From an uncultured Rhizobiaceae bacterium (GTDB lineage Bacteria > Pseudomonadota > Alphaproteobacteria > UBA828), in NCBI GenBank assembly GCA_964429775.1, contig CAYSDJ010000011.1, positions 2,692 through 66,691 on the forward strand: DNA of 64,000 bases, in the 5' to 3' direction. Position numbers and translations under genes: made by a program. Of this stretch, positions 4,934 through 58,218 are shown in pieces; the first letter of the stretch is position 1, and every line of letters begins with the position of its first letter. The notes under the pieces were generated by a model. The model saw only the letters and a program-made list of their open reading frames with translations. It did no database searches and had not been told where the DNA came from.

Positions 4934-5941
4934 TTAGGCCATCGGCTGGTGATGGCGCGCGGCATAGCGCGCGGTGGCGCGGTGCTCAAGCTGGCGTTCG
5001 ATATCGGTTAAGAGGCTGGACGCGCCGATGCGGAACAATTCGGGTTCGAGCCACGGCCGGCCAAGCTCTTCTTTCATCATAAAGAGATAGCCGAGCGCCG
5101 CCTTGGCTGTGCCAATGCCGCCGGCGGGTTTAAAGCCAACGCGGCAGCCCGTGCGCTCGCCGTAGCTGCGGATCATGCGCAACATCACCAGGCTCACCGC
5201 CGGCGTGGCGTTGGTGCTCTCCTTGCCCGTAGAGGTCTTGATGAAATCGGCGCCGGCCATCATGCACACCAGGCTGGCCTTGGCGGTGTTCTTGAGCGTC
5301 GCCAGATCGCCGGTGGCGATGATGGTTTTCAGGTGCGCCACGCCGCAAGCCTCGCGGTAGGCGCGCACTTCGTCATAAAGCGCCTGCCAGTCGCCGGTTA
5401 AAACATTGCTACGATCAATCACGATATCGATCTCGCTCGCTCCGGCGGCGATAGACTCCTCGACCTCAAGCAGACGTGCGCGCGGCGCGCTGAGGCCGGC
5501 GGGAAAGCCGGTCGAGACGGCGGCGATGGGAATGCCGCTGCCGGCAAGCGCTTGCACGGCCGGTGCGATCATGGCGTGGTAGACGCACACCGCGCCGACC
5601 CGGATGCCGAGATCGCCCGCGCCGAGCACATCGAGAACCTCCTGCCGCACCGGCTGGCGCGCCTTGGCGCAGAGCCGTTTGACGCGGCCCGGCGTATCAT
5701 CGCCCGAGAGGGTGGTAAGGTCGATGCAGGTGAGCGCCTTCAACAACCAAGCCGTCTGCCAGTCTTTTTTAACCGTGCGCCGGGCCGGAATATTGGCCGC
5801 GCGGCGCTCGACGGCGCTGGTGTTGATGCGCACCTCTTCCAGCCATTTCGGCTCGAAAGCCATGCCTGGGTTGCGCTCCGGTTCGCCACGCGTCGGCAGA
5901 ATACTGACATTATTGCTCATATCCGGCCCAGTGTGACTCAT
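4934..5941 (-). CDS. deoC: deoxyribose-phosphate aldolase (long form)
   Basis: DeoC/TIM-barrel aldolase similarity (GADFIKTSTG Schiff-base Lys region); start overlaps the PNP stop (ATGA). Confidence 0.85.
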   Translation of the reverse strand: MSHTGPDMSNNVSILPTRGEPERNPGMAFEPKWLEEVRINTSAVERRAANIPARRTVKKDWQTAWLLKALTCIDLTTLSGDDTPGRVKRLCAKARQPVRQEVLDVLGAGDLGIRVGAVCVYHAMIAPAVQALAGSGIPIAAVSTGFPAGLSAPRARLLEVEESIAAGASEIDIVIDRSNVLTGDWQALYDEVRAYREACGVAHLKTIIATGDLATLKNTAKASLVCMMAGADFIKTSTGKESTNATPAVSLVMLRMIRSYGERTGCRVGFKPAGGIGTAKAALGYLFMMKEELGRPWLEPELFRIGASSLLTDIERQLEHRATARYAARHHQPMA

Positions 5942-27911: not shown

Positions 27912-28472
27912 ATGCACCGTCTCTTTATCGCCATCGACATGCCGCCGGCCGTTAACCAGAGCCTGATCGGCCTGTGCCAGGGCGTGAGCGGGGCAAAATG
28001 GGCCGATATCTCGCATTTCCACTTAACGCTGCGCTTCATCGGCGATGCCGATGACGGCCTCATGCGCGATATCGAGCTCGCCCTGGCCGAAATCGAGGCG
28101 CCGGCCTTCGAACTCGCTCTGAATGGCGTCGGCTATTTCCCACCGCGCGGCCCGGCCAAAATCCTGTGGGCCGGAATCGAGCCCGAGGGCCTGCCGACCC
28201 GCTTGCGCGATCAGGTGGTTGCGGCGCTTGGCGTACTTGGCCTTGAGCCCGAGCGCCGCAAATTCGCGCCACATATTACCCTCGCCCGCTTCAAACGCGG
28301 CGCAGCGCCAGGGCAGGTCGCGGAATTTCTCAGCCGCCATGCGCTGTTTCGCACCGAGCCCTTTGCGGTCAACCAATTTCATCTCTATTCGAGCCTGTTG
28401 CGCCCGGATGGTGCGCTGCACCGCATCGAGGCGAGCTATCCGCTGGTCGATGTCGCGGCGTTTGGCGGCTAA
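27912..28472 (+). CDS. thpR: RNA 2',3'-cyclic phosphodiesterase (2H phosphoesterase, ThpR/LigT)
   Basis: Two H-x-T/S-x motifs (HLTLRF, HITLAR); start ATG 27912. Confidence 0.8.
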   Translation: MHRLFIAIDMPPAVNQSLIGLCQGVSGAKWADISHFHLTLRFIGDADDGLMRDIELALAEIEAPAFELALNGVGYFPPRGPAKILWAGIEPEGLPTRLRDQVVAALGVLGLEPERRKFAPHITLARFKRGAAPGQVAEFLSRHALFRTEPFAVNQFHLYSSLLRPDGALHRIEASYPLVDVAAFGG

Positions 28473-38636: not shown

Positions 38637-40355
38637 TCAAGAAGGTGCAGTTTTTTCGCGTTTGGCCGCTTCCTCCGCGATCAATTCCTTCTTCGACAAT
38701 TTGCCGATCAGGGTTTTCGGCAATTCGTCGCGGAATTCGATCTGCTTGGGCATTTCGATGGCGGAGAGCTTGTCTTTGAGGAAGGCGCTGAGGCCTTCCG
38801 CGTCCAAGCTCTGGCCGGCACGCAGTTTGACATACGCCTTGACCGTCTCCTGGCGGTACTCGTCCTCGATGCCGGCAACGGTCACTTCCTCGACCGCCGG
38901 GTGGCGGTATATCGCCTCTTCGACGTGGCGCGGATAGATATTGTAGCCGCCGGCGATAATAACTTCTTTCAGCCGGTCGATGAGGAAGGTGTAGCCGTCC
39001 TCGTCTATATAGCCGACATCGCCGGTATGGAAACGCCCGTCAAGGAGGGCCGCTGCGCTTTCCTCGGCGCGGTTCCAATAGCCGCGCATGACCTGCGGGC
39101 CGGTGATGCAAATCTCGCCGGTCTCGCCTTGCGGCAAAACGGTTGAGGGGTTTTCGACATCGGTTATCTCGACAATCGTGCCCGGCGTCGGCAGGCCGAG
39201 CGAGCCGGCGCGCGATGAGCCGGTTGGCGGATTACAGAGGGCCACCGGCGAGGTTTCGCTCAGGCCATAGCCTTCCAACAGGCGGCAGCCGGAGAGGGAT
39301 TCGAATTTCTCCTGCACGTCGCGCGGCAGGGTATCGCCGCCGGCGAGGCAATATTTCATCGATGTCAGATCGTATTTTTTTGCCGCGACATCGGGATGGT
39401 TGTTGATCGCGATATAGATCGTCGGCACGGCGGGGAAGAAGGTCGGGCGCTTTTTGTGGATGATCTTGAGCGCCGCCTCCAATTCGAAGCGTGGCAGCAG
39501 GATCATCTTGGCGCCGGCATGGACGCTGAAATTCATCACCACCGTCATGGCGAAGACATGAAAGATCGGCAGCACACCCATCATCACTTCCTCGCCGAAC
39601 CTGGTTTCGGGGAAGAAATAGGTCGCCTGCTGCACATTGGTGGAGAGATTTGCGTGCGTCAGCATGGCGCCCTTGGGCCGGCCGGTGGTGCCGCCGGTAT
39701 ATTGCAGCACCGCGATATCCTCATGCGGATCGATCTCGACCGCCGCCGGCCGGCCGTCATTGGCGGTCAGGCTCTTAAACGAGATGTGGCGGCTATCGGA
39801 AGGTATCTGGGCGATGGAGCTGCGTCGCAACAGTTTATAGAGCAGGCTTTTCGGGAATGGCAGTTGCTCGGCCATGGTGACGACAACGATTTTTTTTAGG
39901 CCTGTATTGCCCAGCATTTGGGCCGCTTTATCGTAGATCATCGGCATGTCGAGGGTGATCATGGTCTCGCATTCGGAATCCTCGATCTGCTCGCGGATCT
40001 GGTCCTCGGCGTAAAGCGGATTGAAATTGACCACTGTGCCGCCGGCCCTCAAGACGGCGTAGTACGAGATCACCATAGCCGGGCAGTTGGGCAGCATCAG
40101 GCCGACGCGGCTGCCATTTTTAACCCCTTCGTCCTGCAAACCCTTGGCGGCGCGCTTCACCAGATCGGCCACTTCGCTGAAGCTGTAGATACGGTCCATG
40201 AAATCGATGGCGGGCCGGCTACCGTATTTTTTCTCTGCCGTGTCCATCAGGTCCGGCATGGCGCAGGCGGTGAGCGGCGCGTGCCAATCGATATCATCGG
40301 GCAGAGATTTTTCCCAAAAATGGGTTTCAGCGTTGGCCTGCGTCTGATCGGGCAT
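38637..40355 (-). CDS. fadD: long-chain fatty acid--CoA ligase
   Basis: YTGGTTGRPKGA AMP-binding motif and FACS motif; start ATG 40355 behind SD GGAG. Confidence 0.85.
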   Translation of the reverse strand: MPDQTQANAETHFWEKSLPDDIDWHAPLTACAMPDLMDTAEKKYGSRPAIDFMDRIYSFSEVADLVKRAAKGLQDEGVKNGSRVGLMLPNCPAMVISYYAVLRAGGTVVNFNPLYAEDQIREQIEDSECETMITLDMPMIYDKAAQMLGNTGLKKIVVVTMAEQLPFPKSLLYKLLRRSSIAQIPSDSRHISFKSLTANDGRPAAVEIDPHEDIAVLQYTGGTTGRPKGAMLTHANLSTNVQQATYFFPETRFGEEVMMGVLPIFHVFAMTVVMNFSVHAGAKMILLPRFELEAALKIIHKKRPTFFPAVPTIYIAINNHPDVAAKKYDLTSMKYCLAGGDTLPRDVQEKFESLSGCRLLEGYGLSETSPVALCNPPTGSSRAGSLGLPTPGTIVEITDVENPSTVLPQGETGEICITGPQVMRGYWNRAEESAAALLDGRFHTGDVGYIDEDGYTFLIDRLKEVIIAGGYNIYPRHVEEAIYRHPAVEEVTVAGIEDEYRQETVKAYVKLRAGQSLDAEGLSAFLKDKLSAIEMPKQIEFRDELPKTLIGKLSKKELIAEEAAKREKTAPS

Positions 40356-40539
40356 TGGTCTTACTCCACAGCACGCGGCGGCGAGAATTCGCCCCGCCAT
40401 TCATGGCCGCTCAAACGATAGATGTAGTAAATGCTGAACATTTTGTATAATATTTACTCACGGCCATTCGGGTCAAGCGATTTTGAACCATTTGTGGCGC
40501 TGGGCGCAATATTTCTCCGGCGTCGAAGAAAAGTGCGCG

Positions 40540-40547
40540 TTAACCAT
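40540..40547 (+). promoter_or_regulatory. CtrA-type 8-mer TTAACCAT
   Basis: Exact match to the CtrA half-site consensus, ~140 nt upstream of the CheY gene in a low-GC intergenic region. Confidence 0.45.
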
Positions 40548-40638
40548 GTTAAGTGTTAGCCAAGTTGTGCTTCGAGGGGTTAATAGTAATTTACCGAACT
40601 TGACGTTGTGGACTGGCCGGACCACAGTTGTTACCGGG

Positions 40639-40666
40639 ATGGTTAACCATAATTACAAGCTATAAT
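40639..40666 (+). promoter_or_regulatory. perfect palindrome ATGGTTAACCAT (TTAACCAT on both strands) over the -35 position, plus a TATAAT -10
   Basis: Palindrome 40639-40650; TATAAT 40661-40666; ATG at 40689. Confidence 0.5.
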
Positions 40667-40688
40667 AGACGAAAGGTCCGACCCAAGT

Positions 40689-41078
40689 ATGCCGGACGGG
40701 AATAAACCCAAGATTTTGGTAATTGATGATGACGATCTGGTGCGCGCGACGATAGTGGCCGTGCTGGATCGCGCTGATGTTGAGGTTTCTGAAGCCGCCG
40801 ACGGCGATGTCGGCATGCGCCTTTTTGAAGAAGGTGGGCATGATGTCGTCATCACCGATATTCTGATGCCCAACCGTGAAGGTATTGAGACCATTCGCGA
40901 TTTGCGCCGCAGCAATGAGAGCGTGAAAATCATCGCCATTTCCGGCGGCGGTAATATCGACAAAATGCAATTGTTGGATTTGGCGCAAAAATTCGGCGCC
41001 GACCGGGTGCTGCCCAAGCCCTTCACGCCGCAGCAGGTGTTGACCACGCTGGATGAAGTTCTGGCGGAGCGCGCCTAG
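40689..41078 (+). CDS. single-domain response regulator (CheY-like receiver)
   Basis: ILVIDDD acidic pocket, ITDILMP phospho-Asp, conserved T and K; no output domain. Confidence 0.85.
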   Translation: MPDGNKPKILVIDDDDLVRATIVAVLDRADVEVSEAADGDVGMRLFEEGGHDVVITDILMPNREGIETIRDLRRSNESVKIIAISGGGNIDKMQLLDLAQKFGADRVLPKPFTPQQVLTTLDEVLAERA

Positions 41079-43173: not shown

Positions 43174-43437
43174 GAGCTGATTCCTGATTGCCTGGAGTGC
43201 GCCGCGATCTTTTCGAGGCTGATTTCGCCACCATTATGCCGCCCCATCGGGATCAGGTCGATGGTCAGTCTCATGGCTCTATTCATTGCGGTAGGGGAAC
43301 TGACTTTTGCCTCCCGGTCCAGTGCCTTAGCATTTGGGAGTACCAGACTTAGGCGATGAAACACTATGTACCTTCATTGCGCCATAGACACCTGTCAACA
43401 TCTGTAATCTACTGATTTTGTTATATTAATTGCGGTG

Positions 43438-43453
43438 TTAATGTTTCATTAAT
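43438..43453 (+). promoter_or_regulatory. CtrA-like full site TTAA-N7-TTAAT
   Basis: ttaatgtttcattaat versus consensus TTAA-N7-TTAAC; also TTAA-N6-TTAACC at 43484-43499 and GANTC at 43514. Confidence 0.35.
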
Positions 43454-43521
43454 GTCTCACTTCTAGGATCGGGTTAAGAGAAATTAAGTTTTGTTAACCT
43501 AAGATCGTTCATGATTCGATT

Positions 43522-45309
43522 GTGGTGACGGCAAATAAAAATATTGGCGGGACATCTACGCCTTTCGATGAAATGGAATCGCTTGGCGCCCAATCAGGCC
43601 AGTCACCGCCCAACTTCCTGTCTGTCCTCAATGTTTTAAGATTTCTGCAATTGCGGCATTCGCTCAAGTGGACGATCGTTCTTCCCATTCCACTCATCAT
43701 CGCCGTCGCCATAATTTGTATTTCCATATTGGTGCCCAAATTGACGGCGGACAATGCGCGAGAAACCGCTGTGAATTCGGCAATTCAAACCGCGACCCAG
43801 TTCCGGATATTGCGCGAATATTATACCGAATCCGTGATTTCCAAGGCGATGAAGAATGGTGCGTTGTCGCCGAGCCATGATCACCAGACGGATTCAAACG
43901 CCATTCCGCTGCCGGCCACCTTCATTCATGACATGAGTGATCTGCTCAAAAACGAAAACACCACAATGAGTCTCTATAGCGCCCTGCCTTTTCCGTTTCG
44001 AAACGTGCGGGTTCTGGACGATTTTCAGAGGGAAGCGTGGCGTCAGCTTTCCATAGACCCAGAGAGCATCTTCACACGCCAGGTAGATCGCGATGGCAGC
44101 AATTTCTTGCGCGTTGCCATCGCCGACCGGATGGTCACCGAGGCCTGCGTGAACTGTCACAACAGCCACCCCGATTCGCCGAAGACGGATTGGAAACTTG
44201 GGGACGTCCGCGGCATTCTGGAAATCAATACTTCCATTGACGACCAACTCGCCGCCGGGGCGCATCTCGCCAACATATTGATTCTGATCGCCGGGATTGG
44301 CGGCGGCTTTGTCATGCTCATTGCGCTATTCCTCGGGCGGCGCATATCCCTTCCTTTGCTCGGCATGGCACAGACCATGACAGATATTGCGGACGGCAAG
44401 GAAAGTGTCAGAATTTCCGGCGCGGAGAGGCGCGATGAGATTGGTGCGACGGCGCGTGCGCTGGAAGTGTTCAAGCGGAGCGTCGACACCATCAAGAAAA
44501 ACGAAGCCGACCTTCTCCGTATGCGCGACACGCTGGAGCAACGTGTGGTCGAACGGACATATGAATTGGATCATGCGCTGCATATCGCAGAGGAGGCGAA
44601 TCGGGCGAAATCTGATTTTTTGGCGACAATTAGCCACGAATTGCGAACGCCGCTAAATGCCATTATCGGCTTCTCGGAGATTATGAAAAGTGAGGCGATC
44701 GGGCCGATTAAAGCGGAGAAATATCAGGAATATGCGACCGACATAAACTATTCCGGTCAACACTTGCTGGATTTGATAAACGATATTTTGGACCTTACCA
44801 AGGTGGAAGCGGGCAAGTTTGAATTGAAAGAGGAAAATGTCGATGTCGCCGGCACCATCAACGCCTGCGTGGTCATGGTTAGTGAAGCGGCGCGCTCAGC
44901 CAGTCTTACCGTTGAACAATTAATGCCCGATCGGGCGCCCGTTTTGCGCGCAGATCCGCGACTGTTGAAGCAGATCTTGGTCAATCTTCTTTCCAACGCC
45001 GTCAAATTTACTGAAGCGGGTGGCAATATCTCTATCCGCGCATATACATCGGAGGCGGGTGAATTCGTCATTCAGGTTTCCGATACCGGCATCGGCATCA
45101 AGCCTGAAAATATTTCGAAAGTGATGGCGGTGTTCGGTCAGGTCGACAATTCCCTCAGCCGCAAACATGAGGGCTCCGGGCTTGGCTTACCATTGACCAA
45201 GGGTCTGGTCGAACGGCACGGTGGGTCGCTGACGCTGGAAAGCGAGGTCGGTGTGGGCACGGTCGTCACTCTGCAATTCCCGACCTACCGAATTGTTGGC
45301 GGGGCATAA
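43522..45309 (+). CDS. sensor histidine kinase with a periplasmic CXXCH (putative c-type haem, DUF3365/Tll0287-like) sensor domain, HAMP, HisKA and HATPase_c
   Basis: TM1 aa~50-72 and TM2 aa~245-265 flank a domain with EACVNCHNSHPD; ISHELRTPLN H-box; GSGLGL G2 box. The start is uncertain: GTG 43522 or ATG 43573. Confidence 0.8.
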   Translation: MVTANKNIGGTSTPFDEMESLGAQSGQSPPNFLSVLNVLRFLQLRHSLKWTIVLPIPLIIAVAIICISILVPKLTADNARETAVNSAIQTATQFRILREYYTESVISKAMKNGALSPSHDHQTDSNAIPLPATFIHDMSDLLKNENTTMSLYSALPFPFRNVRVLDDFQREAWRQLSIDPESIFTRQVDRDGSNFLRVAIADRMVTEACVNCHNSHPDSPKTDWKLGDVRGILEINTSIDDQLAAGAHLANILILIAGIGGGFVMLIALFLGRRISLPLLGMAQTMTDIADGKESVRISGAERRDEIGATARALEVFKRSVDTIKKNEADLLRMRDTLEQRVVERTYELDHALHIAEEANRAKSDFLATISHELRTPLNAIIGFSEIMKSEAIGPIKAEKYQEYATDINYSGQHLLDLINDILDLTKVEAGKFELKEENVDVAGTINACVVMVSEAARSASLTVEQLMPDRAPVLRADPRLLKQILVNLLSNAVKFTEAGGNISIRAYTSEAGEFVIQVSDTGIGIKPENISKVMAVFGQVDNSLSRKHEGSGLGLPLTKGLVERHGGSLTLESEVGVGTVVTLQFPTYRIVGGA

Positions 45310-45340
45310 ATTTTGCTTGCGACGGCGAATCTGTGTCGCG

Positions 45341-46354
45341 TTAGGCCACGGATTTTTGCTGTTCGGCGGCGCGTGGCTTGGTACGCAATTCCTTCAGCTC
45401 GAACGGATCGGCGTGAATATCTTGCATATCCGCGCCGGCGAGGAAGGCGCGTTTTTTGGCGCCGTGCACCATCGGCGGGTTGCCGCAGAGATAGACGCGC
45501 CACCCCTTGAGGTTTTTGAGTTCCGCGAGCGCCACCTCGTCGGCCCGGCCACGGGTGTAGCCGAGCGGTGGGTTTTCGCCCGAGAGACAGCCGGTATATC
45601 TGAAATTGGGATAGGTCTGGGCAAGATCAAACAGGCTGTCGCGGTGGTATAGGCCGGCCGGCTCGCGCGAGCCATGATAGAGCCGGACCTCGCCGCTATG
45701 GCCGTCGTTCAGCGCATCGCGGGCAATTGCCACGAGTGGCGCGAGACCGGTGCCGCTGCCGATGAGCAGCAGGTTTTTCTCGGGCGCACCGGGCAGGTAG
45801 AAGCAGGCACCGTTCGGGCCCTGGATATCGACACTTTCGCCGATCTTCATCTCATTGAAGGCCCAGTTACTCATTTTGCCGCCGGGCAGGCGCTTGATAT
45901 GGAATTCGAGATAGCGGTCGAGGTTGGGCACGCTGGCGAGGGAGTAGGAACGGCACAGGCCATCGCCGCGGCGTAAGTTGAGAAACTGCCCGGCGTGGTA
46001 ATAGAGCGGCGTCGCCGGCTCGAGCATAACGCGGCAAATATCGGGCGCCAGCAATTCGCGTGACTGAACCAGGGCGCGCTGATAGATCGCCGCGTCCTCG
46101 GCCTGCACGACCCGGATATCGCCCTCGGGCACGCACAGGCAGGAGAGAAAATAGCCCTCGACGCGCAGTGTCTCGCGTAAGCCCGCTTGCGCTTTTTCCG
46201 GCACACCGCCATCGGGCGTGCGCATCATGCAGTTGAAGCAGGTGCCCTTGCGGCACGAATAGTTCGGTTCCTCGCCGTTGCGCAGCAGGGTATCGAGGAC
46301 CGATTCCGATGGCTCGGCCTCGTAAACCCTGTTGCTGAATTCTACGCTCGGCAT
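45341..46354 (-). CDS. ferredoxin--NAD(P)H reductase with an N-terminal plant-type 2Fe-2S domain (BenC/XylA-like), likely the trHbN reductase
   Basis: CRKGTCFNC...C Fe-S cluster; RSYSLAS FAD motif; LLLIGSGTGLAP NAD motif; ATG 46354 lies 24 nt after the trHbN stop with SD AGCAGG. Confidence 0.8.
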   Translation of the reverse strand: MPSVEFSNRVYEAEPSESVLDTLLRNGEEPNYSCRKGTCFNCMMRTPDGGVPEKAQAGLRETLRVEGYFLSCLCVPEGDIRVVQAEDAAIYQRALVQSRELLAPDICRVMLEPATPLYYHAGQFLNLRRGDGLCRSYSLASVPNLDRYLEFHIKRLPGGKMSNWAFNEMKIGESVDIQGPNGACFYLPGAPEKNLLLIGSGTGLAPLVAIARDALNDGHSGEVRLYHGSREPAGLYHRDSLFDLAQTYPNFRYTGCLSGENPPLGYTRGRADEVALAELKNLKGWRVYLCGNPPMVHGAKKRAFLAGADMQDIHADPFELKELRTKPRAAEQQKSVA

Positions 46355-46378
46355 GGTTTGCCTGCTTCGCACTGTTGC

Positions 46379-46747
46379 CTATTGGTTGAGAACGTCGCCC
46401 TTCGTGCTGGCGGCAACGGACATGATTTCACCGGCGATATTCTCCGGCACGCCGAGCTCGCTCAGCGTATCCTGCAAATGGCCGGCCACGGCGTCGAAGT
46501 GCGAGCTGTTGAGGCCCTTTTCCACGAGCTTGGCGTGGGCGGTACGCATATCCTTGCCGGTATATTCATTTGGCCCGCCGAACACCATCGTCAGGAAAGC
46601 TTTCTGCTTTTCGCGCTGGGCGTCCATATCGGTATCATCAAAAAATCCGCTGATAGAATCATCGCTCAATACTTTGCGATAGAACACATCGACCGCGGCA
46701 TTCACGGCAGCTTCGCCACCAATTTGCTGATAGATCGACCCGGTCAT
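46379..46747 (-). CDS. glbN: group I truncated haemoglobin (trHbN)
   Basis: 122 aa; 2-on-2 globin signature (FY..V..D......FF, GGP..Y.G, proximal His in MRTAHAKL). Confidence 0.85.
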   Translation of the reverse strand: MTGSIYQQIGGEAAVNAAVDVFYRKVLSDDSISGFFDDTDMDAQREKQKAFLTMVFGGPNEYTGKDMRTAHAKLVEKGLNSSHFDAVAGHLQDTLSELGVPENIAGEIMSVAASTKGDVLNQ

Positions 46748-46848
46748 TTTGACATTCCCCTAAAGTGATAAATATCTCGCAGTGGAGCTACGAATATCCT
46801 CCGAAGGCGTTACCAAAGGGTGAAAATCAGCCGAAAATTGATAGCGGA

Positions 46849-54169: not shown

Positions 54170-54562
54170 CTATTTGGCCATCCAGTGGAGCAGGCGCTTT
54201 TTCAGCATTTTAGGCTGGATCGGCTTGACGATGTAATCGTCCCCGGCCACCTTCATGGCCTTGAGAATGTCGTCTTTTGAATTCAAGGCGGTCTGAAAGA
54301 TGATGCGGCATTTGAGCAGGGGATAATCCTTGCGAATGCGGCTACAGACCTCGAATCCGTCCATATCCGGCATCATGATGTCCAACAGGATGATGCGCGG
54401 CGCGGTTTTCTTGAGAATATTCAGGCATTCAATACCATTCCGCGCGCCGACGAAGCGGTAGCCCATGCTGGCGACCGTCGCCGACAGCAATTTCAGGTTC
54501 AGCATCTCGTCATCGACGCCGAGCACCATGCTGCCGGGCCTGGGAAAACTCTCTTGGGACAT
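54170..54562 (-). CDS. single-domain response regulator (CheY-like) inserted between infC and rpmI
   Basis: VDDE acidic pair, LLDIMMPDMDG phospho-Asp, FQTA, VKP; start ATG 54562 (the ORF's first codon at 54607 is GTG); GC is visibly lower than flanks. Confidence 0.75.
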   Translation of the reverse strand: MSQESFPRPGSMVLGVDDEMLNLKLLSATVASMGYRFVGARNGIECLNILKKTAPRIILLDIMMPDMDGFEVCSRIRKDYPLLKCRIIFQTALNSKDDILKAMKVAGDDYIVKPIQPKMLKKRLLHWMAK

Positions 54563-54648
54563 TTTTATCTCGCCGTGGGATGAACATGGCATGGCCGGTA
54601 AATTCACATTGCCGCGCCACGCGTTGGCACGAGACTAACCGGCAATGG

Positions 54649-55185: not shown

Positions 55186-55261
55186 GCTTATTCCCCTCTC
55201 TTTTCCTCAACAAATAAAGGCCGCAGAACGGTATTTCCGGCCCGGATACATTAAAAACCAT

Positions 55262-57181
55262 TTAATTTGCCCGCGCCAGAGGCCCTGCCGCCTCTATTTG
55301 AAGTCTATCCACGGCCTCGTCGAGCGCAAGCACTTCTTGCTGTTTGTTGCCGAGGCGGCGCATGGCGACGGTCCGGCCCTCCGCTTCGCGCCCGCCGACG
55401 GCGAGAATGACGGGCAGTTTGGCGACGCTGTGTTCGCGCACCTTAAAACCGATCTTCTCGTTGCGGAGATCCGTCTCGGCACGGAGGCCCGCGGCGCGCA
55501 GACACGCGGCGACTTCCCCGGCATAGGCATTGCTATCATCGGTGATGGTCGCCACAACCACTTGGCGCGGCGCTAGCCAGAGCGGAAAACGCCCGGCATG
55601 ATGCTCAATCAGAATGCCGAGAAAACGCTCGATCGAACCGAGAATAGCGCGGTGCAGCATGACCGGGCGATGGCGCTCGCCATCCTCGCCGACATAGGAC
55701 GCATCAAGCCGCTCGGGCAGAACGAAATCGACCTGCAGGGTACCGCATTGCCAATCGCGACCGATCGCGTCGCGCAGCACGAATTCGAGCTTGGGGCCGT
55801 AAAAGGCGCCTTCTCCGGGATTGAGATGAACCTCAAGGCCGGCGCTCTTGACCGCTTCCATCAAGGCCCCTTCGGCGCGGTCCCAAACTTCATCGGCGCC
55901 GGCGCGCACCGGCGGTCGATCGGCGAAATTGACCAGCACTTTCTCGAAGCCGAAATCTTTGTATATCGACATCAGGAGATCGCAGAAATCCTTGGTCTCG
56001 GGCGTGATCTGATCCTCGGCGCAGAAAATATGCGCATCATCCTGAACGAACCCGCGCACCCGCATCAGCCCGTGCAGCGCGCCGGACGGCTCATTGCGGT
56101 GGCAGGCGCCGAACTCGGCCATGCGCAACGGCAGGTCGCGGTAGCTTTTGATGCCCTGGCGGAAAATTTGCACATGGCCGGGGCAATTCATCGGCTTTAG
56201 CGCCAGAACGCGTTCTTCCGCCTCGGTGGTGAACATATGCTCGCGGAATTTTTCCCAATGGCCGGAGGCTTCCCACAGGGTGCGGTCGACCAGTTCGGGC
56301 GTTTTGACCTCGATATATCCGGCATCGTCGAGACGCGTGCGCATATAGTTTTGCAAGATGCGGTAGAGCTGCCAGCCATCGGCGTGCCAAAACACCATGC
56401 CCATGGCTTCCTGCTGGAGATGAAACAGATTCATCTCGCGCCCGAGGCGGCGGTGATCGCGCTTTTCCGCTTCTTCGAGGCGGAACAGATAGGCCTTGAG
56501 ATCTTTTTCGGTTGCCCAGGCGGTGCCGTAAATGCGTTGCAGCATTTCGTTGTTGGAATCGCCGCGCCAGTAAGCGCCGGCAATCTTGGTCAGCTTGAAG
56601 GCGCCGATGCGCCCGGTCGAGGGCAAATGCGGCCCGCGGCAGAGGTCGATAAAATCGCCCTGGCGGTAGAGCGTGACGTCCTCACCTTCGGGAATAGCGG
56701 CGATCAGTTCCGCCTTGTAGCTCTCGCCGGCCTGCTCAAACAATTCGATCGCCTTGTCGCGCGGCCACACTTCACGGGTGATCTCCTCGTCGCGCTTGAC
56801 GATCTCGGTCATGCGCGCTTCGATAGTCACGAGATCATCCGGCGTGAACGGTTCGGGCCGGGCGAAATCGTAGTAGAAGCCGTCTTCAATGGCCGGGCCG
56901 ATGGTAACCTGGGTGTCGGGGTAGAGTTCCTTGACCGCCTCGGCCATCACATGAGCGGTATCGTGGCGCAACACCTCAAGCCCGGCATCGTCTTTGGCGG
57001 TGACGATACTGACCGCCGCGTCGGCCTCTATCAGGCGCGATAAATCCCACAATTCGCCATCGACCGAGACCACCAGCGCCGCCTTGGCGAGGCCGGGGCC
57101 GATACTGGCGGCAATCTCCAACCCGCTTACGGGCGCATCGAATGAACGTTTCGAGCCGTCTGGCAATGTGATGTCGGGCAT
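55262..57181 (-). CDS. thrS: threonine--tRNA ligase
   Basis: TGS and editing domains; class II motifs; HRA...GSIERF. Confidence 0.92.
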
Positions 57182-57276
57182 GGACCTCTTAATTCTATCT
57201 CTGAATGGCTAAAAGTGGCGGCACTCTAACGGGCGCGTGGCACCTGTCAAGCCGGGCCAGGGTTGCATATTTATGG

Positions 57277-58218
57277 TTAAGGCAACGTCAACGTGGCGCG
57301 CACTTCGTCGACCGGCAAATCCGCCATCCGCGTGCATTGTATCAACCGTACCCGGGCTCCGCGCGGCGCCGTGAGGTCAGGGTCGGAGGCGGCGGAAAAG
57401 ATCACCGTGGCGGCACAGCCGACTGAAGCGACGATATGCATGGGCCCGGTGTCATTGCCGACGGCACCCGCGGCGCGTCGCGCCAGGGCGGCGATCTGGC
57501 CGAAATCGGTGCGGCCGCACAGATTGAGCGCGTCCGGGCAATGGCTGCTGATCTCGGCCAGCACGTCACGCTCCGCCGCCGCGCCGATTAGGACGGGGCG
57601 ATAGCCGGCAGCAAAAATCTCTCTCGCAAGTTCGCCGTAGGCCCGTGCCGGCCAGCGCTTTTCCGGGCGATGTGCCGATCCGCCGGCAACCAGCAACACG
57701 CAAGGTTTCTCATTCCGGCCACCGGGCAGGAGGGCGGAGATATCGCCATCGAGCCAGGCTAGATCCGCATCCGGCACTTCATCGATGCCGGCCATGGCGA
57801 GCTGTTCGCGCTGGCGCTCGACGGTATGCATGCCGTCGCGCCGGGGATTGGCGTGCGGATGCGAGCAGCCCGGCGCAATGCCCGACCATTCCGGCCGGGG
57901 AGTAGTGAAATAGCGGTAATATGCGCTTGAGCGGCTCGAGGTCTGCAAATCATAGACACGGCCGAAGCCGCCCGAGCGCAGGCGCCGGCGCAGGGCGAGC
58001 CAGGCCGGAATATTCCACGCCTTGGCTCTCGGATCCAACCAGATACGGTCGAAATGGTCCGAGCGCTCGGCCATCGCGGCATAAGGGGCGGTGGTGAGAA
58101 GGGTGATGCGCGCCTCTTTATGATGCGCGCGGATGGCGGCGAACGGCCCCATCGAAAGCAGGAAATCGCCGAGGGCGCCATGCTTGATGACGAGAATTTC
58201 GGCCCGGCTCGCGCTCAC
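57277..58218 (-). CDS. glycosyltransferase family 9 (ADP-heptose:LPS heptosyltransferase-like)
   Basis: ILVIKHGALGDF start; GT9 fold. Confidence 0.8.
   Translation of the reverse strand: MSASRAEILVIKHGALGDFLLSMGPFAAIRAHHKEARITLLTTAPYAAMAERSDHFDRIWLDPRAKAWNIPAWLALRRRLRSGGFGRVYDLQTSSRSSAYYRYFTTPRPEWSGIAPGCSHPHANPRRDGMHTVERQREQLAMAGIDEVPDADLAWLDGDISALLPGGRNEKPCVLLVAGGSAHRPEKRWPARAYGELAREIFAAGYRPVLIGAAAERDVLAEISSHCPDALNLCGRTDFGQIAALARRAAGAVGNDTGPMHIVASVGCAATVIFSAASDPDLTAPRGARVRLIQCTRMADLPVDEVRATLTLP

Follow-up and report, generated by a model that had tools for sequence, protein, structure and literature searches.

CtrA-type boxes upstream of a receiver-only response regulator gene in an uncultured marine alphaproteobacterium

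Does the spacer in front of a small response regulator gene place that gene under the control of CtrA? CtrA belongs to the OmpR family of response regulators; its recognition sequences are TTAA-N7-TTAAC and the half-site TTAACCAT. The locus lies in a 64-kb stretch of DNA, called the window below, from a genome most closely related to MAGs of marine alphaproteobacteria, namely Rhodospirillaceae bacterium SI073_bin108 and the MarineAlpha10 bins. Left of the spacer, on the minus strand, is an AMP-binding, long-chain-fatty-acid-CoA-ligase-like (fadD-like) gene that heads a cluster of thiolase, FadB-like and acyl-CoA dehydrogenase genes. On the other side, the response regulator gene (RR) is followed by ispG (-), an alpha/beta hydrolase gene (-) and a histidine kinase gene (+). 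The bounds of the spacer assume that the fadD-like gene starts at 40355, which gives a product of 572 aa in agreement with the gene calls in relatives; the longest open reading frame would start at 40400. The features discussed are collected in Table 1.

Table 1. Features of the response regulator spacer and of the kinase locus in window coordinates, with the identity of spacer blocks to the relative L001.
Feature	Position	Strand	Description	Identity to L001
Divergent intergenic region	40356-40688	.	fadD-like gene (-) / receiver-only RR gene (+)	
fadD-side candidate promoter and operator	40426-40476	-	TTGACC-N18-TATTAT; proposed from sequence and covariation in relatives	
Box 1 block GTTAACCATGTTAAGTGTTAGCC	40539-40561	+	TTAACCAT (40540-40547), then GTTAAG and GTTAGC repeats	97% (over 40539-40571)
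M site GGTTAATAGTAATTTACC	40578-40595	+	TTAA-N7-TTAC, near-full CtrA-type direct repeat; 9.9 bits	100% (over 40578-40596)
Promoter-like stretch	40597-40628			88%
P2 candidate promoter, best conserved	40599-40628	+	CTTGACGTTG with -35-like TTGACG (40600-40605), N17, -10-like CACAGT (40623-40628)	
Box 2 palindrome ATGGTTAACCAT	40639-40650	.	plus-strand 15-mer TTAACCATAATTACA, 12.1 bits; GTTGTTAACCTT in L001	75%
Remaining spacers between blocks				38-60% (those flanking box 1, 38-50%)
P3 candidate -10 TATAAT	40661-40666	+	strain-specific; 5' base of box 2 at about -30	
Likely ribosome-binding site GAAAGG	40671-40676	+	GACGA(A/G)AGG block kept in orthologous leaders; putative function	
Receiver-only RR, 129 aa	40689-41078	+	Pfam Response_reg (PF00072), E = 4.5e-23, residues 9-121	
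Array of six phased TTAA boxes	43426-43499	+	starts at 43426, 43438, 43449, 43474, 43484 and 43494	
Histidine kinase	43522-45309	+	two TM segments, Tll0287-like periplasmic domain, HAMP, HisKA, HATPase	

Boxes in the spacer and across the window

The spacer is the visibly AT-rich island that an earlier note on this DNA had described, with a GC content of 0.47 vs 0.61 for the whole window. Below-average GC extends into the RR gene (about 0.51-0.53), and the spacer and both genes, RR and kinase, are lower in GC and GC3 than their neighbours. On re-reading the sequence, we found the box, the palindrome and the TATAAT exactly where the earlier note had placed them. Box 1 opens with TTAACCAT on the plus strand, an exact CtrA half-site; box 2, a perfect 12-bp palindrome, carries the same 8-mer on both strands; and 22 nt separate the TATAAT from the ATG at 40689. 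The further GTTA(A/G/C)C words reported there are also present (GTTAGCC at 40555-40561, GTTAATAG at 40579-40586 and TGTTACC at 40629-40635). Two elements were absent from that account: a near-full site, TTAATAGTAATTTAC(C), with TTAA-N7-TTAC at 40580-40595 (the M site), and a canonical full site in front of the kinase gene. In support of the earlier note's assignment to CtrA, the forms published for its half-site and full site (PMC3692519, PMC6180460, PMC4287350) are matched exactly: TTAACCAT is found at positions 40540 and 40639/40643 and TTAA-N7-TTAAC at 43437, with TTAA-N7-TTAC at 40580 in addition.

Such a concentration is hard to obtain by chance, as had been argued from the two 8-mers. 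The window holds four copies of TTAACCAT vs 0.52 expected, three of them in the RR spacer. In 200,000 first-order Markov simulations of 333 bp with the spacer's own dinucleotide make-up, the mean number of these 8-mers was 0.02, with P(>=2) = 2.4e-4 and P(>=3) < 5e-6, and the 12-bp palindrome arose at a frequency of 3.5e-5. TTAAC is found six times in the RR spacer and four times in the kinase-gene spacer; all other intergenic DNA, ~5.9 kb, contributes another four. The one copy of TTAACCAT outside the RR spacer is on the minus strand, within TTGACGTTGCCTTAACCAT (57266-57291; TTGA-N7-TTAACCAT, 11.3 bits), some 90-110 bp 5' of thrS, an unexpected location for a CtrA-type site.

A weight matrix for full sites, built from 50 Caulobacter CtrA sites (S5 dataset of PMC4287350), gives a more sober picture of the RR spacer. 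With this matrix box 2 scores 12.1 bits, the M site 9.9 bits and box 1, a pure half-site, 1.6 bits; the window contains six matches of at least 12 bits vs 3.9 expected, and its intergenic DNA shows no enrichment after local-composition shuffles. What the matrix singles out is the site in the kinase-gene array, not the RR boxes. Second in rank is a match of 14.6 bits (TTAAAAACCATTTAA / TTAAATGGTTTTTAA, 55251-55265) at the thrS stop, 5' of infC, and a further one of 13.3 bits (TTCACCCTTTGGTAA, 46810-46824) lies 5' of a globin gene. The word GTTAACCA at 27951 was rejected as a regulatory site, being inside a coding region.

On the fadD side of the spacer, a different palindrome, AGTAAAT-N19-ATTTACT (40426-40458), overlaps the minus-strand TTGACC-N18-TATTAT, and its half-sites covary in the relatives L002 and L003 (AGTGAATA...TATTCACT). 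This pattern suggests that it may be the operator of a dimeric repressor acting on the fatty-acid-degradation operon.

Conservation and promoter layout

We compared syntenic loci with the fadD-like and RR genes from the same marine clade (MarineAlpha10 and "Rhodospirillaceae" MAGs) at several distances. Two of them, L143 and L144, are identical to the window. In L001 and L050 the RR is 99% identical and the flanking genes are about 90% identical in DNA, while the spacer is only 72% identical, and along its length the conservation relative to L001 is strongly uneven (Table 1). The contrast between 97-100% identity in box 1 and the M site and 38-60% in the spacers between blocks speaks for selection on these two elements.

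Five lineages could be aligned across the spacer: the window, L001, L042 (96% RR identity), L046 (92%) and L052/L086 (92%). The sole invariant 10-mer among them is CTTGACGTTG. All five keep TTAAC-type boxes at the position of box 1, as does every lineage with an RR identity of at least 92%, with turnover of the partner half-site. In L042 the box 1 stretch is invariant and forms a perfect full site, TTAATTGGTTGTTAACCAT (TTAA-N7-TTAACCAT, 15.9 bits); in L046 it reads TTAACATTTCTTAAC, with N6 spacing, and in L052 TTAACGATGTTTAGT. The left half of the M site is retained in L042, and L146 (90% RR identity) has a positional equivalent, TTTAGTGAGTTTAAC, beside the -35 element. The palindrome and the TATAAT, on the other hand, are specific to this strain. 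L001 keeps only GTTAACC of the palindrome, L042 has ATGGTTAA and L046 has lost it; the position of the TATAAT is occupied by TAAGAT (L001), AAAACT, GGTTAG or GAGTGA. No TTAAC boxes were found in L002 (89% RR identity) or L003 (85%), both syntenic, nor 5' of RR homologues at 61% identity or less. Orthologous promoters in the clade of at least 90-92% RR identity thus conserve box 1 and the M site but not the palindrome, and relatives at 85-89% conserve none of them.

The region 5' of the RR gene is also prone to larger rearrangement. In L002, tandem repeats of about 10 bp (GCGATTCCCC and variants, 5780-5850) replace the box region. In L045 (1-150), L044 and L049/L051 (1-90, corresponding to about 40655 of the window), the end of an IS30-family element replaces the DNA beyond about -35 bp from the RR ATG, and these population variants are without any of the boxes. 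The C-terminus of an IS30 transposase is recognisable in them (NF033563, E = 9e-5); two different IS elements have GTGTTGCGTCGA as their common end and are joined at an identical point. Numerous metagenome contigs stop 80-180 bp 5' of the RR gene.

The conserved positions also bear on which promoter is used. In the five aligned lineages the TTGACG hexamer is followed, after 17 nt, by (C/G)A(C/A)AGT, and L002, L003 and L146 have TTGACC at an equal distance from the ATG. We infer from these sequences that P2 is a promoter with a transcription start near 40635. Box 1 would then lie at about -96, the M site at about -56 to -41, its end 4 bp 5' of the -35-like hexamer, and the palindrome at about +3 to +15. 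The earlier note had instead placed the palindrome at the -35 position of the TATAAT. Both elements do occur in this strain, but their arrangement is not conserved in L042, L046 or L052, and we regard that layout as doubtful; in addition, the P3 arrangement leaves a leader of only ~17 nt, with the ribosome-binding site at its extreme 5' end. A better promoter candidate than the TATAAT is the invariant CTTGACGTTG-N17-nAnAGT element some 60 bp farther 5'. We favour a conserved promoter with activation from upstream, on which the palindrome would be a strain-specific overlay.

In Caulobacter, CtrA sites that cover the -10 element repress; activating sites mostly have their 5' base at -38 to -40 and less often at -25 to -29 (PMC4287350). 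A box at about -30 has precedents there in fliL, dgrA and motA. Within the P2 spacer we also noticed a semi-conserved inverted repeat, TGTGGAC-N6-GACCACA (40607-40626; TGTGGA-N8-TCCACA in L042), which could be a further operator; its TCCACA/GACCACA resembles DnaA-box cores.

The response regulator and a haem-sensor kinase

The RR has all the catalytic residues of a receiver domain, namely the acidic pocket D13/D14, D57, S85 and K110, and its relatives in the PDB are generic receivers only. The name CheY, which the earlier note had given to it, does not hold: the CheY_Halo model scores 57.9 bits vs a cut-off of 200, and the window has no che genes. The two regulators of the CtrA circuit that had been put forward for comparison fare no better, with 44.7 bits vs a cut-off of 160 for DVU0259_DivK, the sole DivK-named model among the matches listed, and no adjacent pleD, and with 55.4 bits vs 180 for CpdR (NCBIfam). 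Osp, an inhibitor of CckA, was likewise rejected as an identity; judged against its published description (PMC9430884), the RR differs in keeping the acidic residues and K110. Homologues of the RR adjoin PAS or hybrid kinases. The description of the gene as an orphan stands insofar as the gene encodes a receiver only, but there is a kinase gene at a distance of 2.4 kb. Another response regulator with only a receiver domain (145 aa, 54170-54607, minus strand) sits between infC and rplT, inside the usual thrS-infC-rpmI-rplT-pheST cluster; it was discarded as a CpdR or DivK marker of a CtrA circuit, since it falls below every named NCBIfam cut-off. Within the 64-kb window, we found no ctrA, cckA, chpT, flagellar or chemotaxis genes.

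The Tll0287-like domain of the kinase carries CVNCH, a haem-c motif; gene callers place the start of the gene at 43573. The boxes of the array upstream follow at 12, 11, 25, 10 and 10 bp and include the canonical full site TTAATGTTTCATTAA / TTAATGAAACATTAAC (43437-43452) as well as GTTAACC. At 17.9 bits this full site, 2.8 kb from the RR boxes, is the best matrix match of the window, with 0.02 expected at 17 bits or more. The kinase is missing in L001, L050, L041, L046, L049 and L052. Orthologues with 64-67% identity occupy the same syntenic site in L139-L142, which indicates that the gene is old and has been repeatedly lost and led us to reject the idea of a foreign island; no box array was found 5' of the kinase orthologues elsewhere. 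The kinase and its array form a 2.1-kb segment (43265-45340) that behaves as a presence/absence polymorphism and adjoins a truncated-globin and ferredoxin-reductase pair (45341-46747).

CtrA or another explanation

The earlier note had counted single-domain regulators among the components of the CtrA circuit. In Caulobacter, divK, two cheYIII genes (CCNA_02332 and CCNA_03367) and CCNA_03395 are CtrA-dependent receiver-only genes (Zhou et al. 2015, PMC4287350). As in those genes, boxes of the TTAA-N7-TTAA and TTAACCAT types precede a small receiver-only gene in the same orientation, and the box sequences are near-identical to the Caulobacter flbT (TTAACCATGTTTTGA), fliX (TTAACCATACTTCAA) and dgrB sites. 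The RR differs from the Caulobacter targets in being orthologous to neither DivK nor CheY, and the candidate P2 gives distances of about -96, -56 and +3 for the boxes, whereas the 5' base of the Caulobacter motif is for the most part at -38 to -40 of a mapped start. A second parallel is osp of R. (Cereibacter) sphaeroides, which encodes a CtrA-activated, single-domain inhibitor of CckA that resembles response regulators and has been reported only in Rhodobacterales (PMC9430884). The two genes share a monocistronic, single-domain make-up, a CtrA-type box some tens of bp 5' of the ATG that is conserved among close relatives, and a patchy distribution. In contrast to the RR, however, Osp is without the Mg-binding acidic pair and the conserved lysine, and works unphosphorylated. 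Finally, the 6-bp TTAA spacing of box 1 in L046 and of two boxes in the kinase array is that of the R. sphaeroides fla2 and Magnetospirillum sites (PMC6180460); N6 spacing is thus documented for CtrA sites, podJ P1 being an example in Caulobacter (PMC4287350). In contrast to the boxes described here, the fla2 and Magnetospirillum sites belong to flagellar genes, and their role has been probed with mutants (PMC6180460).

Weighing these observations, we consider CtrA-type control of the RR, and in this strain also of the kinase, to be somewhat probable. The matches are exact and improbable, and the host is an alphaproteobacterium; TTAAC-type boxes are kept at the position of box 1 at an RR identity of at least 92%, with an equivalent of the M site in L146; the boxes are almost identical to, and co-oriented with their gene like, the flbT, fliX and dgrB sites; the best full-site match of the window precedes the nearby kinase gene; and receiver-only genes are often CtrA targets, as in Caulobacter and in the case of osp. 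For these reasons we favour CtrA. Its case is weakened by the window's lack of ctrA, cckA, chpT and flagellar genes, by RR boxes that are unremarkable as full sites in intergenic DNA without enrichment, by the absence of the boxes at 85-89% RR identity and in farther homologues, by an M site that would start at about -56 under the conserved promoter vs a typical -38 to -40 in Caulobacter, and by kinase orthologues without an array. Some alphaproteobacteria lack ctrA altogether, none having been found in Pelagibacter and Granulibacter (Brilli et al., PMC2877005).

We envision that the boxes would put the RR gene under the CckA-ChpT-CtrA pathway, or under a regulator of equal specificity. The functional core would be the part conserved in relatives, box 1 (40539-40561) and the M site (40580-40595), directly 5' of the sigma-70-like promoter formed by TTGACG (40600) and CACAGT (40623). 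RNA polymerase may be recruited there by a phosphorylated dimer that occupies about -56 to -41, together with more molecules at about -96. The palindromic box 2 would be a recent addition in this strain, which could either form a second CtrA-dependent promoter with the TATAAT (box at about -30) or, as an alternative, act as a brake just 3' of the conserved start. In this strain, kinase and RR would be co-regulated, the kinase gene being preceded by an array of these boxes that is better still. In this scheme we infer CtrA as the binder, the promoter that is used and the sign of regulation; cell-cycle-regulated expression, as proposed in the earlier note, would be an extrapolation from Caulobacter.

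The strongest competitor, which we nevertheless hold to be unlikely, is a different DNA-binding protein that recognises GGTTAA/TTAACC repeats, such as another response regulator of the OmpR or NarL family, possibly the output regulator of the RR/kinase pathway itself, acting by autoregulation. It would account for the conservation of the boxes, for a motif shared by the upstream regions of an RR and a kinase that may form a pair, for the irregular repeat spacings (9, 7, 10, 11 and 12 bp), for the restriction of the boxes to a narrow clade and for a window without CtrA-regulon context or enrichment. Yet both canonical CtrA forms are matched exactly, including the TTAA-N7-TTAACCAT of L042 and the TTAA-N7-TTAAC of the kinase gene, and, with the RR retained in lineages that have lost the kinase, their pairing is not obligate. 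We know of no other alphaproteobacterial regulator with a GGTTAA/TTAACC consensus, which also counts against such a protein.

It is rather improbable, to our minds, that the boxes have no sequence-specific function and arose as by-products in DNA that is AT-rich, evolves fast and was possibly acquired horizontally, bound perhaps only by nucleoid proteins such as MucR-type silencers. The low GC and GC3 of spacer, RR gene and kinase gene would fit, as would a rearrangement hot spot with IS30 insertions and kinase gain or loss, a palindrome and TATAAT confined to one strain, and full-site matrix scores that are not significant. Simulations with the spacer's own composition nonetheless leave P at about 2e-4 for the two 8-mers and at 3.5e-5 for the palindrome, box 1 and the M site stand out at 97-100% from adjacent spacers at 38-60%, and the boxes recur in five lineages despite diverged surroundings.

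An RNA element (a 5' leader or a small RNA), or a mobile-element remnant bounded by the perfect 9-nt inverted repeat GTTAACCAT...ATGGTTAAC (arms 91 nt apart), is extremely improbable: transcripts from a candidate promoter farther 5', TTGAAC-N18-CAATAT (40483-40512), would span the entire block and IS insertions occur nearby in relatives, but the right arm is imperfect in relatives and the internal promoter-like element is common even to lineages without both arms. Both forms were rejected, the RNA on a single chance match in Rfam at E<=10 and a fold weaker than that of shuffles (z = +1.27), the remnant or MITE because neither the window nor the unrelated loci examined contain another copy.

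Returning to control by CtrA, one could go further and picture the RR and the c-haem kinase as a CtrA-controlled accessory module that feeds a redox, O2 or NO signal to CckA-CtrA, a DivK- or Osp-like loop made of unrelated parts and tuned by box turnover, IS30 insertion and kinase loss. We consider this extension highly improbable.

Taken as a whole, placing the RR in a CtrA regulon amounts to an ordinary promoter prediction, and one of a familiar type. Its use lies in regulon reconstruction; the outcome is the one expected from Caulobacter, Rhodobacter and other CtrA regulons, and opens no new question. If it is confirmed, one more target would join the CtrA regulon in this uncultured clade of marine alphaproteobacteria, namely a single-domain regulator that can be phosphorylated and, in this strain, also a haem-sensor kinase, and CtrA boxes would be seen to be gained and lost fast between populations that are about 80-90% identical in DNA.
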